Made by a program: the position numbers and the translations under genes. 64,000 nt of DNA from Escherichia coli O157 typing phage 7: the sequence record KP869105; one strand, 5' to 3'. This document shows, one piece after another, positions 56,411 through 59,016 of the stretch; positions within the stretch are counted from its first letter, which is position 1, and each line of letters opens with the position of its first letter. The notes below the pieces were generated by a model. That model had not been told where the DNA came from, made no database searches, and worked only from the letters and a program-made list of their open reading frames with translations.

Positions 56411-56992
56411 TCATTTATATACTGATTCCGTAAGGGTTGTTACTTCATCTATTTTATACCAATGCGTTTCAACCATTTCACGCTTGCTTATATCATCAAG
56501 AAAACTTACATCTAACTGAACCGTTGAATTAACACGATGCCTTTTAACGATGCGGGAAACAACTACTTCATCCGCATAAGGTAATGCAGCATATAGTAGA
56601 GCGGGTCCTCCAATTACACTTACTTTGGAATTCTGATCAAGCATAGTCTCGAATGGTGCATTAGGGCTTGACACTTGAATTTCGCCACCAGAAATGTAAG
56701 TTATATATTGCGCCCAAGTAATATAGAAATGTGCTAAATCACCGTCTTTAGTTACAGGATAATCACGCTCAAGGTCACACACCACAATATGGCTACGACC
56801 GGGAAGTAATGTAGATAATGACTGGAACGTTTTAGCACCCATAATCATAATTGTTCCTTCGGTACGAGCTTTAAAATTCTGGAGGTCCTTTTTAACTCGT
56901 CCCCATGGTAACCCATCACCTAAACCGAATGCTAATTCATTAAAGCCTTCGACTGTTTTAGTTGGAGCATAAGCAAATACTAATTTAATCAT
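56411..56992 (-). CDS. frd: dihydrofolate reductase
   Basis: 193 aa as in T4 Frd; DHFR-like N-terminus [30 protein letters not shown]. Confidence 0.9.
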
Positions 56993-57369
56993 TTTAATTC
57001 CTTAGTTGCCTTTTTGATGGCAGTAAAATCTTTGCGAATATCAAGAACCAATTTATAAAGATGTTTAATTATATCTGTATCAAAATATGATACCGCACAA
57101 CGAGAATTGCGAATATCTTCTAATGAATACTTGCTTTCACTTGTACCATATCCAATGATACCACTAATGCACTTGTCATTAAGCGTATATTTCTGTGGAC
57201 CATCAATAATATTTTTAGGATAGATGTAAAGGCTCCAATCAAATTTTTGTTCAAGCGTATTAACCTTAACTTCAAGAATCAGTTCAGGATGTGCATCATC
57301 TTTAGCAAAGCAAGTGTATTCAGTAAGCATTATATTTTCCTCAAATTCATTTAAATCAAGACTATGCAA
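56989..57369 (-). CDS. hypothetical protein (frd.1 position)
   Basis: 126 aa, ATGA-coupled to frd. Confidence 0.5.
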
Positions 57370-57422
57370 TTTTTAAAGCATTGCATAATAGAATTCATCA
57401 TTCATAAACTCAAATACAAAAA

Positions 57423-57782
57423 TTATATTATCTCCCATCGAAAAGGGTCAGGAGCATATCCGATAGAGTTAATCATTTTAACTAAAGTTACCATTCCTTT
57501 GTTAACTGCTTGTGCGATTTCATCAAAAACTTCATCGCTATCATCATAAAGGTCATTAAAAAGTTCTAACACGTTCTTCTGAACTTTTAATTTATGACCA
57601 ACAATCTCGCCTACAGTAAATTCGTTTCCGCCGATTCCAGTGTAAAACGTAATTACACCAGTTAACAGACTTTCGCGAGAATCTAGGTCATGTGATAAAT
57701 TAATATAAGCCATCCCGGGTGCAGTTTTAAGTTGGCAACGAATTCTTACTTGGGTAATTCCGGTTACATGAATGTCGGACAT
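57423..57782 (-). CDS. hypothetical protein
   Basis: Track ORF trimmed to ATG at 57782 (MSDIHVTGITQV...), preceded by GAGGAAA; 119 aa. Confidence 0.5.
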   Translation of the reverse strand: MSDIHVTGITQVRIRCQLKTAPGMAYINLSHDLDSRESLLTGVITFYTGIGGNEFTVGEIVGHKLKVQKNVLELFNDLYDDSDEVFDEIAQAVNKGMVTLVKMINSIGYAPDPFRWEII

Positions 57783-57792
57783 ATTATTTTCC

Positions 57793-58032
57793 TCACGCTT
57801 TCTTAGCGACTTTCCAGTCAGCTTTAAATTGGTCAACGTCAGAGTGATGAATCCAGAAACCAGATGAGCTACCATCTTCATAAAGAGGACAACCATCACA
57901 CTCATCTTCCCATCCCATATCACGTAAAAGATGTTCAGCTTTTTCAATGAGTTCAGAATCTTTACCGATGATATTAAAATACCATTTACCTCTAACTTCT
58001 GAATCTTTGATGCTCTGGCGTTGTAATCTCAT
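57793..58032 (-). CDS. hypothetical protein
   Basis: Track ORF trimmed to ATG at 58032 (MRLQRQSIKD...), preceded by GAGGAG; 79 aa; early promoter/stem-loop upstream. Confidence 0.5.
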   Translation of the reverse strand: MRLQRQSIKDSEVRGKWYFNIIGKDSELIEKAEHLLRDMGWEDECDGCPLYEDGSSSGFWIHHSDVDQFKADWKVAKKA

Positions 58033-58053
58033 TTTATTCTCCTCAAGTTGATA

Positions 58054-58088
58054 GGGTAATAGTATCACACTACTACCCTGTTGTAAAC
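58054..58088 (-). promoter_or_regulatory. T4-type early promoter with stem-loop
   Basis: Minus strand: GTTTAC, 17 nt, ATACTA; imperfect inverted repeat GGGTAGTAG/CTATTACCC. Confidence 0.45.
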
Positions 58089-58090
58089 AA

Positions 58091-58351
58091 TTATTTTTGA
58101 ATTTTATCGAGCCACTTACCAAGCTTAATCATTTCTTTAGTAGCCTTTTCCATACTTCTGAACTTAACCAATAGAGGATAGGTATCGACACCCATAACTA
58201 AACTGGTTACAAGACTGTGTTCACCCACAAGCCATAACGAATACGTTTGAATATCGAGTCCGTAATTTCTGTCTTTATGGACCCGTACACCCATCACTTC
58301 AAATTTCTCACTAGCTTTTTCTACCGCATCCAGGAAATCATCTTTAGTCAT
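58091..58351 (-). CDS. hypothetical protein
   Basis: Track ORF trimmed to ATG at 58351 (MTKDDFLDAVEK...), 86 aa. Confidence 0.45.
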   Translation of the reverse strand: MTKDDFLDAVEKASEKFEVMGVRVHKDRNYGLDIQTYSLWLVGEHSLVTSLVMGVDTYPLLVKFRSMEKATKEMIKLGKWLDKIQK

Positions 58352-58352
58352 A

Positions 58353-58739
58353 TTAGGCCTTAAAAGTTTTTCGCAAAAGTTCAATGATTTCATCTACATT
58401 GTTTTCGTCAACAATGCAGTGAATTTTTGTTACGCCAGAAACTATACCTTCATTAGCGGATTGAGGCTTTTCTAAAGTTACCTCAGTAAAGTATTTGAAT
58501 TCTTCAGAGTAAATCTCAAAATACGTCTCAAGTGGGCCACCCGCCATGTATTCAGTGCCGTCTTCCATAGTTACACGTACCACACAGTCACCAGCACAAT
58601 CATCACTTTCCATTTCATCTACAACAAAACTAGGTCCGTGCTTCTCTATTAAATTTAGCATCATTACATTGCAACGGCACTCGTTAGCAAAGTCATTTTT
58701 AAATAAAGGGTTAATGATATAAGTTTTTCCAACTTCCAC
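58353..58739 (-). CDS. hypothetical protein, GTG start
   Basis: 128 aa; GTG start with GAGGAAA 7 nt upstream. Confidence 0.5.
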   Translation of the reverse strand: MEVGKTYIINPLFKNDFANECRCNVMMLNLIEKHGPSFVVDEMESDDCAGDCVVRVTMEDGTEYMAGGPLETYFEIYSEEFKYFTEVTLEKPQSANEGIVSGVTKIHCIVDENNVDEIIELLRKTFKA

Positions 58740-58785
58740 TTTGATTTCCTCATTTTAACGGGGCTATCAAATAGCCCCTTGATAA

Positions 58786-59016
58786 TTATTGTTCAATCAG
58801 TCCCATGTAAAATTCTGCGTCTTCAGAATCCATGCCATCGCAATATTCATTAGCCATAAAGCGGGTAAGGTCTTCAAGAGGACCTTCAATGACAATAGAA
58901 AAATTGCAATAATTGGGATCATCATGAATACTTGTGATACTAAGTTCAGGATAACGATTACGAATAATCTCTTCAATATATTCAAAATCAACGATGTCAA
59001 TATCAACTTTAGCCAT
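58786..59016 (-). CDS. hypothetical protein
   Basis: Track ORF trimmed to ATG at 59016 ([13 protein letters not shown]...), preceded by AAGAGGAAA; 76 aa. Confidence 0.5.

Follow-up and report, generated by a model that had tools for sequence, protein, structure and literature searches.

Results

Six small genes lie between frd and gene 32

The window analysed here is a 64,000-nucleotide (nt) stretch of Escherichia coli O157 typing phage 7 (sequence record KP869105), and our subject is a cluster of six small open reading frames (ORF1 to ORF6) at positions 56989–59016, in the interval between frd and gene 32. A 4-kb stretch around the cluster matches Escherichia phage wV7 (HM997020 / NC_019505; Tequatrovirus) at 100% identity and RB68 and RB51 at 99.5%, and about 87 phage records cover at least 80% of it at megablast level; the source phage is wV7, an RB51-like Tequatrovirus. 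Our analysis indicates that the frd-32 interval is very probably a hyperplastic region of wV7, with six small, real, early accessory genes, three of them shared with T4 and three drawn from a shuffled pool.

All genes of the cluster and the neighbouring genes td, frd, 32 and 59 are encoded on the minus strand (Table 1). The interval measures 2171 bp in wV7 and 1257 bp in T4, where it holds frd.1, frd.2 and frd.3 only, as the first-pass annotation of this DNA had stated. The same annotation had described six ATG- or GTG-initiated ORFs filling the interval, and these coincide with six RefSeq coding sequences of wV7 and RB51; RB68 is annotated likewise, so that the six-gene layout is already known. 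When T4 was compared for one-to-one orthologues of all six, only three were found: T4 frd.1, frd.2 and frd.3 (NP_049851–NP_049853) are orthologous to ORF3, ORF5 and ORF6. A good Shine-Dalgarno sequence had been claimed for every ORF, which holds for the five preceded by GAGG and not for ORF4, which has AAGG only. ORF4 starts 1 nt past the frd.2 stop, and the stop codon of ORF1 and the start codon of frd overlap in an ATGA, a tight spacing that suggests translational coupling from frd.2 to ORF4 and from ORF1 to frd. The true start of ORF4 is at 58351, since the N-terminus MTKDDF/MNKD is kept in 20 homologues; a 100-residue version starting at the upstream ATG (58393) was rejected, as it would overlap frd.2 and the conserved N-terminus favours 86 amino acids (aa).

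Table 1. Positions, in the window, of the genes and elements discussed
Feature	Position	Strand	Description
td	55138–55998	-	without intron
RB32ORF229c-like ORF	56044–56391	-	115 aa, between td and frd; phrog_1928, no Pfam match
frd	56411–56992	-	
ORF1	56989–57330	-	113 aa, ATG; phrog_8592, no Pfam match
Decayed stump of 81-aa gene (apparent spacer)	57331–57422	-	alignment to T6 and translation
ORF2	57423–57782	-	119 aa, ATG; PF23905 DUF7247, phrog_3566
ORF3 (frd.1)	57793–58032	-	79 aa, ATG; PF17438 DUF5417, phrog_1254
Putative early promoter with embedded hairpin, upstream of frd.1	58048–58088	-	-35 at 58082–58087, -10 at 58059–58064
ORF4	58091–58351	-	86 aa, ATG; phrog_4423, no Pfam match
ORF5 (frd.2)	58353–58739	-	128 aa, GTG; PF03197 FRD2, phrog_622
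GC hairpin, frd.3–frd.2	58761–58779	-	GGGGCTAT-TTG-ATAGCCCC, 8-bp stem, no T run
ORF6 (frd.3)	58786–59016	-	76 aa, ATG; PF05798 Phage_FRD3, phrog_1764
Putative early sigma-70-type promoter upstream of frd.3	59060–59088	-	TTTACA-N17-TACTAT, upstream TG
Rho-independent terminator of gene 32	59099–59140	-	stem 59122–59140 plus T run, GGGGACC-CTAGA-GGTCCCC; terminator scan, fold, RefSeq
Gene 32	59164–60072	-	
Gene 59	60172–60825	-	

The ratio of non-synonymous to synonymous divergence (dN/dS), taken from pairwise comparisons with T4, T6 or JS98, ranges from 0.03 to 0.44 across the six ORFs; all six are under purifying selection and are real genes. Four of them score above the Pfam gathering thresholds (DUF7247, DUF5417, FRD2 and Phage_FRD3) and each of the six matches a PHROG; the first-pass remark that no recognisable motif was present is thus overturned, and stands only in the sense that every one of these families is of unknown function. 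Among 50,697 phage records, homologues were counted in 1416 for frd.1, 880 for frd.2, 731 for frd.3, 426 for ORF2, 348 for ORF4 and 79 for ORF1. Short length, one GTG start, the weak Shine-Dalgarno of ORF4 and the lack of known functions would suit chance open frames in AT-rich DNA as the origin of some of the six. That every ORF shows the dN/dS values above and has full-length homologues with conserved ends, that the Pfam or PHROG matches have E-values of 1e-32 to 1e-76 and that 84% of the wV7 interval is coding make this origin extremely improbable, and we regard it as already effectively refuted. The isoelectric point (pI) lies below 5.3 for four of the six products, those of ORF1 and ORF4 being 6.7 and 8.0.

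frd.1, frd.2 and frd.3 are shared with T4

ORF3 matches DUF5417 over residues 1–78 (118.7 bits, E = 1.3e-34, gathering score 23.9) and is 90% identical to T4 Frd.1 at the amino acid level, with dN/dS of 0.07–0.09; the synonymous divergence (dS) of frd.1 from its T4 counterpart is 0.72, against 0.19 for frd. ORF6 covers 75 of the 75 positions of the Phage_FRD3 profile (129.6 bits, E = 6.3e-38, gathering score 28.1), is 87% identical to T4 Frd.3 (dN/dS 0.27–0.44) and has a pI of 4.05.

ORF5 matches FRD2 (115.9 bits, E = 1.4e-33, gathering score 29), has a pI of 4.4 and can be aligned over its full length with the Frd.2 proteins of T4, T6, T2, RB69 and JS98. It is a divergent allele with a GTG start where T4 uses ATG, and its amino acid identity is 70% to RB69 and 45% to T4 and T6. 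Divergence is concentrated in the N-terminal ~90 residues, which are hypervariable (31–45% identity within and between genera), whereas the C-terminal ~30 residues are almost invariant and include the motif VSGVTKIHCIVDENNVDEIIELLRKTFK, near-invariant across Tequatrovirus, Mosigvirus and Dhakavirus. In JS98 (1136–2514 of the compared locus) frd.2 is present as tandem paralogues, frd.2a and frd.2b.

A shared N-terminal LSm-like fold has been predicted for Frd.2, GoF and MotB.1 (Kim et al. 2025, PMC12152347), the prediction for T4 Frd.2 coming from AlphaFold3 analysis (PMC12152347); the fold is a bent antiparallel beta-sheet of five strands (LSm/SH3-like). Through its FRD2 membership and the published T4 model, the same fold is predicted for wV7 Frd.2, which is probably an RNA-binding protein. 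ORF2 and ORF4 were considered as further beta-barrel members of the Frd.2/GoF family and rejected (hhalign probability <1%). In T4, a frd.2 amber mutant is viable and plates normally (PMC12152347), while in CRISPRi-ART frd.1, frd.3 and frd came out as 'Not Fit' and frd.2 as a marginal 'Fit' (0.83, p = 0.027; PMC11879866).

Three further genes are absent from T4

ORF1, ORF2 and ORF4 have 100% identical annotated homologues in RB51 (RB51ncORF236c, 237c and 239c). ORF1 is absent from T4, T2, T6 and RB69, and its 79 homologue records come only from RB51/wV7-type Tequatrovirus and from Dhakavirus. It is 93.8% identical to JS98 orf228 in amino acids and 92.1% in nucleotides (dS 0.33, dN/dS 0.10).

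ORF4 is likewise absent from T4, T2, T6 and RB69 and is 96.5% identical in amino acids and 90.4% in nucleotides to JS98 orf232 (dS 0.58, dN/dS 0.03). Its homologues extend to Phapecoctavirus (~150 kb), Webervirus siphoviruses (~50 kb) and Pectobacterium and Pantoea phages, with an invariant core, KDRNYGLDxQTYSLW. A profile search against 1.84 billion representative proteins returned 12 clusters (50% identity), all standalone proteins of 64–98 aa, with no fusions that would hint at a function. The AlphaFold2 model has a predicted local distance difference test score (pLDDT) of 70 and consists of a helix, three strands and a helix. A conserved pairing of ORF4 with frd.1 in Webervirus early regions was considered and dropped: the two occur in the same variable region in different phages, and the IMGroot neighbour is not DUF5417.

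ORF2 belongs to DUF7247 (111.1 bits, E = 5.2e-32, gathering score 27). It is 81.5% identical to its T6 homologue KMB99_gp160 (dN/dS 0.31), and identity within Tequatrovirus ranges from 66% to 100%. DUF7247 also occurs in Klebsiella and Enterobacter T4-like phages and in one phage with a vB_EcoP name, a prefix that conventionally denotes a podovirus. The AlphaFold2 model (pLDDT 75) has five strands and two helices, and BFVD returned only another DUF7247. In T6 the DUF7247 gene and the following 81-aa gene overlap (ATGA), and in one metagenome protein of 196 aa DUF7247 is fused, by read-through, to the 81-aa protein of the T2/T6 type.

Gene order varies among T4-like phages

Read from gene 32 to frd, T4 has frd.3, frd.2 and frd.1; T2 has frd.3, frd.2, frd.1 and an 81-aa gene (four genes); T6 has frd.3, frd.2, frd.1, DUF7247 and the 81-aa gene (five genes), the last sitting in the slot of wV7 ORF1. 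The order in wV7, RB51 and RB68 is frd.3, frd.2, ORF4, frd.1, DUF7247, ORF1. RB69 has three genes (ORF245c, frd.2, frd.1) and JS98 six to seven (frd.2a, frd.2b, ORF4, frd.3, frd.1, (orf229), ORF1). JS98 thus shares ORF1 and ORF4 with wV7 but arranges its genes differently and has no DUF7247.

Two events have left stumps. Positions 145704–145761 of T4, annotated as intergenic between frd.1 and frd, are homologous to the first codons of ORF2 and read MYVIEIIQVSIRFQLK followed by a stop; the remnant amounts to 16 codons directly after frd.1. The stump shows that the T4 lineage deleted the rest of ORF2 together with everything on to frd. In wV7, ORF2 and ORF1 are separated by 92 bp in which some 30 codons from the start of the 81-aa gene survive in decayed form, with the ATG changed to ATA and an in-frame TAA; T2 and T6 have this gene intact. 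This decayed stump shows that ORF1 replaced the 3' two-thirds of the 81-aa gene in the wV7 lineage.

ORF4 is missing in T4 and T6 at the end of frd.2. In wV7, frd.2 terminates in CGAAAAACTTTTAAGG and ORF4 in CGATAAAATTCAAAAATAA, and the T4 frd.2 end, CGAAAAACTTTCAAAAAGTAG, looks like a fusion of the two; the junction lies at the edge of the promoter cassette upstream of frd.1. These ends are consistent with a deletion between short similar sequences, the direction being our inference. The cluster had been called expanded at first pass, which holds for the number of genes (six against three in T4) but describes in part a contraction: given the ORF2 stump, T4 is a reduced reference at this locus and not the ancestral state.

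T4 and T6 carry an 87-bp segment, absent from wV7, that separates the promoter cassette from the Shine-Dalgarno of frd.1. It encodes a 22-aa hydrophobic ORF, MFAPYIMAAVMLVCLYLLIKAC followed by a stop, with a GGAG Shine-Dalgarno (T4 record 146018–146083; 2269–2334 of the compared T6 locus); the sole T4/T6 difference in this mini-ORF is synonymous, and it has no annotation in NC_000866.4. The segment is found in 201 phage records, and 14 of the 15 listed have no feature under the match, the other having 'promoter'.

ORF1 and ORF4 are closer to Dhakavirus than their neighbours are

The flanking core genes are further from JS98 than ORF1 and ORF4 are: frd is 77% identical in nucleotides (dS 1.34), td 75% (dS saturated) and gene 32 71%. 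With their higher nucleotide identity and lower dS, ORF1 and ORF4 point to cross-genus exchange: their common ancestor with the copies in Dhakavirus is more recent than that of the core genes on either side. Synonymous divergence thus shows that the two were swapped with Dhakavirus-like phages after the core genes diverged. wV7 Frd.2 is likewise closer to RB69 (70%) than to T4 (45%), and the frd-32 locus is a mosaic.

Promoters and hairpins of the interval

The concepts of the hyperplastic region and of the promoter-early stem-loop (PeSL) have been set out by Comeau et al. (2014, PMC4122927). At the gene 32 end of the interval lies the gene 32 terminator, identical in T4, and after it the putative promoter of frd.3, both hexamers of which are kept in T4 with a different spacer. 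T4 frd.3 mRNA is among the abundant phage RNAs capped with nicotinamide adenine dinucleotide (NAD) (bioRxiv 10.1101/2024.04.04.588121), which is consistent with an active frd.3 promoter in T4. The wV7 promoter would drive frd.3, frd.2 and ORF4.

Inside the cluster, an early promoter/stem-loop cassette proposed at first pass was recovered upstream of frd.1, from where it would drive frd.1, ORF2, ORF1 and frd. Its promoter (58059–58087) reads TTTACA-N17-TACTAT with an upstream TG, and a hairpin of 9–12 bp, with arms at 58070–58078 and 58054–58062, pairs the spacer with the -10/+1 region (-15.2 kcal/mol, z = -2.5). One of 41 positions is substituted relative to T4, and the window has no second exact copy of the cassette. 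The GC hairpin that the first-pass annotation noted at 58761–58779 was also confirmed, by folding; T4 has a hairpin with a shorter, 6-bp stem at this site (GGGGCT-ATCA-AGCCCC). An Rfam scan of the interval found no known RNA family. A MotA-type middle promoter upstream of ORF1 was considered and rejected on reading the sequence, as the spacing from box to -10 is wrong.

In JS98 there are cassette copies upstream of both frd.3 and frd.1, with outer stems GGTCT/AGACC and AGGCT/AGCCT in place of GGGTA/TACCC in wV7. We take the hairpin to be PeSL-like because the copies before frd.1 homologues keep it through compensatory stem changes. The motif GTTTAC-N15-16-GATACTAT-N5-TATCAAC was found in 69 IMG/VR stretches (82 instances, 52 distinct), with nine copies in the JS98 contig, and 24 of the 52 distinct cassettes fold at or below -6 kcal/mol, compared with 5.7 (maximum 10) in spacer-only shuffles. 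Every copy before a frd.1 homologue has a strong hairpin, and the stems differ. Enrichment over the shuffles, together with retention in copies whose stems differ, shows that the hairpin is selected. An earlier covariation test in a fixed 9-nt register undercounted hairpins and was superseded by this comparison of minimum free energies with spacer shuffles.

RNA made from the cassette promoter lacks the 5' arm, so the hairpin would form only in read-through RNA or single-stranded DNA; we infer that it may act as a 3' stabiliser or attenuator of upstream transcripts, or as a recombination site. The 5' edge of the cassette, ATTCAAAAATAA, supplies the stop codon of the upstream gene, which is ORF4 in wV7 and JS98 and frd.3 in JS98. 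Two cassette copies flank JS98 frd.3, which stands at another position than in T4 and wV7, a placement consistent with cassette-mediated relocation.

A second type of cassette occurs elsewhere in the window as 54-nt copies at 34092–34145 and 49416–49469 that are 96% identical. Read on the minus strand as GTTTACAAGTCCCTCATGTTGTGTTATAGTAG...AACATGAGGA, these have a GTTTAC promoter and a hairpin enclosing the -10, and suggest that promoter-embedded hairpins recur in the wV7 genome.

Neighbouring genes

The td gene has no intron; its residues 1–183 are 98.9% identical to T4 and residues 184–286 only 73%, the break falling exactly at the insertion point of the T4 intron (I-TevI). The RB32ORF229c-like ORF is 99% identical to its T2 and T6 copies and absent from T4, where td and frd overlap; in the RB51 annotation this gene is flanked by a 9-bp repeat. 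At 60073–60171, between 32 and 59, the window has no gene for the homing endonuclease segG, which T4 has there. In gene 34 (plus strand), runs of N (three of 10 and one of 100 bases) at 62852–63168 and 63405–63504 stand between exact duplicates of parts of the gene, 152 nt and 54 nt long. They have the appearance of artefacts of assembly or scaffolding that the public wV7 record carries.

Discussion

Probable origin of the differences from T4

Ordinary recombination explains the difference between wV7 and T4 at this locus. ORF4, ORF2/DUF7247 and ORF1 belong to an accessory pool that is gained, lost and swapped among T4-like phages, and the indels, the gene replacement, the cross-genus exchange and the promoter/hairpin cassette at the junctions bear out the first-pass view of a hyperplastic region.

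A different history would make the three-gene T4 state ancestral and all three extra genes insertions in the wV7 lineage, brought in by PeSL mini-circles or by co-conversion with a homing endonuclease. ORF1 did come in by replacement, as the remaining stump shows, a recent exchange with Dhakavirus seems likely for both ORF1 and ORF4, RB69 (Mosigvirus) has three genes only and a promoter cassette is present at the ORF4 junction, all of which such a history would accommodate. It fares worse with ORF2, for which the 16 codons kept after frd.1 make T4 a deletion derivative; DUF7247 stands at the same place in T6, and its homologues occur in Klebsiella and Enterobacter T4-like phages, counted here by presence and not by genomic position. 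The T4 frd.2 end, moreover, reads as a fusion of wV7 frd.2 and ORF4, and in the wV7 annotation no homing endonuclease gene lies in or adjoining the interval. We consider an ancestral T4 state somewhat unlikely.

Several points weigh against our own reading of the locus as a hyperplastic region of early accessory genes. Strong constraint could partly explain the identity of ORF1 and ORF4 to JS98, yet their synonymous sites are also less diverged. The sequences at the ORF4 junction fit a deletion without proving its direction. A generic promoter scan gave 14 sites, against 15.1 in shuffles, and the activity of the wV7 promoters is deduced from their consensus and their conservation in T4. The published results on T4 frd.2 conflict, CRISPRi-ART scoring as 'Fit' a gene whose amber mutant plates normally.

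What the six proteins may do

The six products are small cytosolic proteins that the phage can probably do without in the laboratory; as the likeliest role we would guess at a modulation of host or phage processes in early infection. Sequence searches of the PDB with all six proteins gave nothing significant, and neither a PADLOC scan nor an NCBIfam scan returned a hit. Comparison by PDB sequence and BFVD fold showed no significant similarity to characterised anti-defence proteins such as Acr, Acb, Tad and Dmd. No literature was found on DUF7247 or DUF5417, and the bNACHT11 trigger paper does not mention frd or gene 32.

The first-pass annotation saw here the kind of region where accessory or anti-defence genes accumulate, and one or more of ORF1, ORF2 and ORF4 could indeed be counter-defence genes, the locus then being an anti-defence islet. 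The spread of the three is patchy (79, 426 and 348 records for ORF1, ORF2 and ORF4, against 1416 for frd.1), ORF4 and DUF7247 reach unrelated groups (Phapecoctavirus, Webervirus and the vB_EcoP-named phage), ORF2 ranges from 66% to 100% identity within Tequatrovirus, and small size, early expression as predicted from the promoters and cross-genus exchange would all be in keeping. The suggestion nevertheless gained no direct support: no family or fold match was informative, the gene families are without literature, ORF1 and ORF4 show strong purifying rather than diversifying selection (dN/dS 0.10 and 0.03), with no arms-race signature, and T4, T2 and RB69 manage without these genes. We judge a counter-defence role unlikely. 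A role as accessory subunits or regulators of nucleotide synthesis (td, frd, nrd), co-located and co-translated with the enzymes, seems very unlikely. The cluster does adjoin td, frd and nrdA in all phages examined, and the ATGA overlap of ORF1 and frd is kept in wV7 and JS98; the slot next to frd, however, is filled by ORF1, by the 81-aa gene or by nothing, Pfam and NCBIfam reveal no nucleotide-binding or enzyme motifs, and early gene order in T4-like phages reflects transcription units more than function.

A bolder proposal, which we hold to be quite unlikely, is that ORF4 is a widely useful inhibitor of some factor conserved in enterobacteria, whether in defence or housekeeping, and that, separately, the hairpin of the frd.1 promoter is a functional PeSL variant. 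The first part is put forward because ORF4 has an invariant core, a dN/dS of 0.03, a distribution shared by Straboviridae, Phapecoctavirus and Webervirus and about 12 clusters. If the second were true, the variant would combine in one movable unit the stop codon of the upstream gene, a 3' stabiliser of RNA, a promoter and a Shine-Dalgarno.

The discovery value of the locus is small, as RefSeq, Pfam, PHROGs and the PeSL literature already cover its genes, the families they belong to and its plasticity. It does provide a worked example of how a T-even accessory locus changes, with deletion and replacement stumps, exchange across genera and junctions marked by a promoter cassette, and it offers ORF1, ORF2/DUF7247 and ORF4 as conserved, selected candidates for functional screens.

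Comparison with known systems

In T4 and wV7, frd.1 to frd.3 agree in their order relative to 32 and frd, in Pfam families and in promoter/terminator context; T4 differs in having no ORF4, ORF2 or ORF1 and in its extra 87 bp upstream of frd.1. Within the GoF/MotB.1/Frd.2 family, ORF5 is the Frd.2 member, with a weak PHROG match to goF (E = 0.006), and the N-terminal half predicted to be LSm-like is the part that is hypervariable among the Frd.2 proteins compared here.

PeSL elements were reportedly described by Arbiol et al. in 2010. Their promoter consensus in PST/T4 is TTTACW-N17-TAYWAT (PMC4122927), which both wV7 promoters fit exactly, with GAGG and an ATG 15–35 nt downstream. The element at 59060–59140 has the canonical layout of terminator and promoter, the terminator lying 33 nt upstream of the -35. 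The element at 58048–58088 departs from it in that the hairpin overlaps the spacer and the -10 (to +1), where the canonical stem-loop precedes the -35; no T run follows, and the window contains one exact copy of the cassette. PeSLs occur several times per genome, mostly where indels or replacements join in hyperplastic regions. Of the wV7 cassette it can be said that it abuts the ORF4 indel and that its motif has nine copies in the JS98 contig, while a second type of cassette is repeated in the window.

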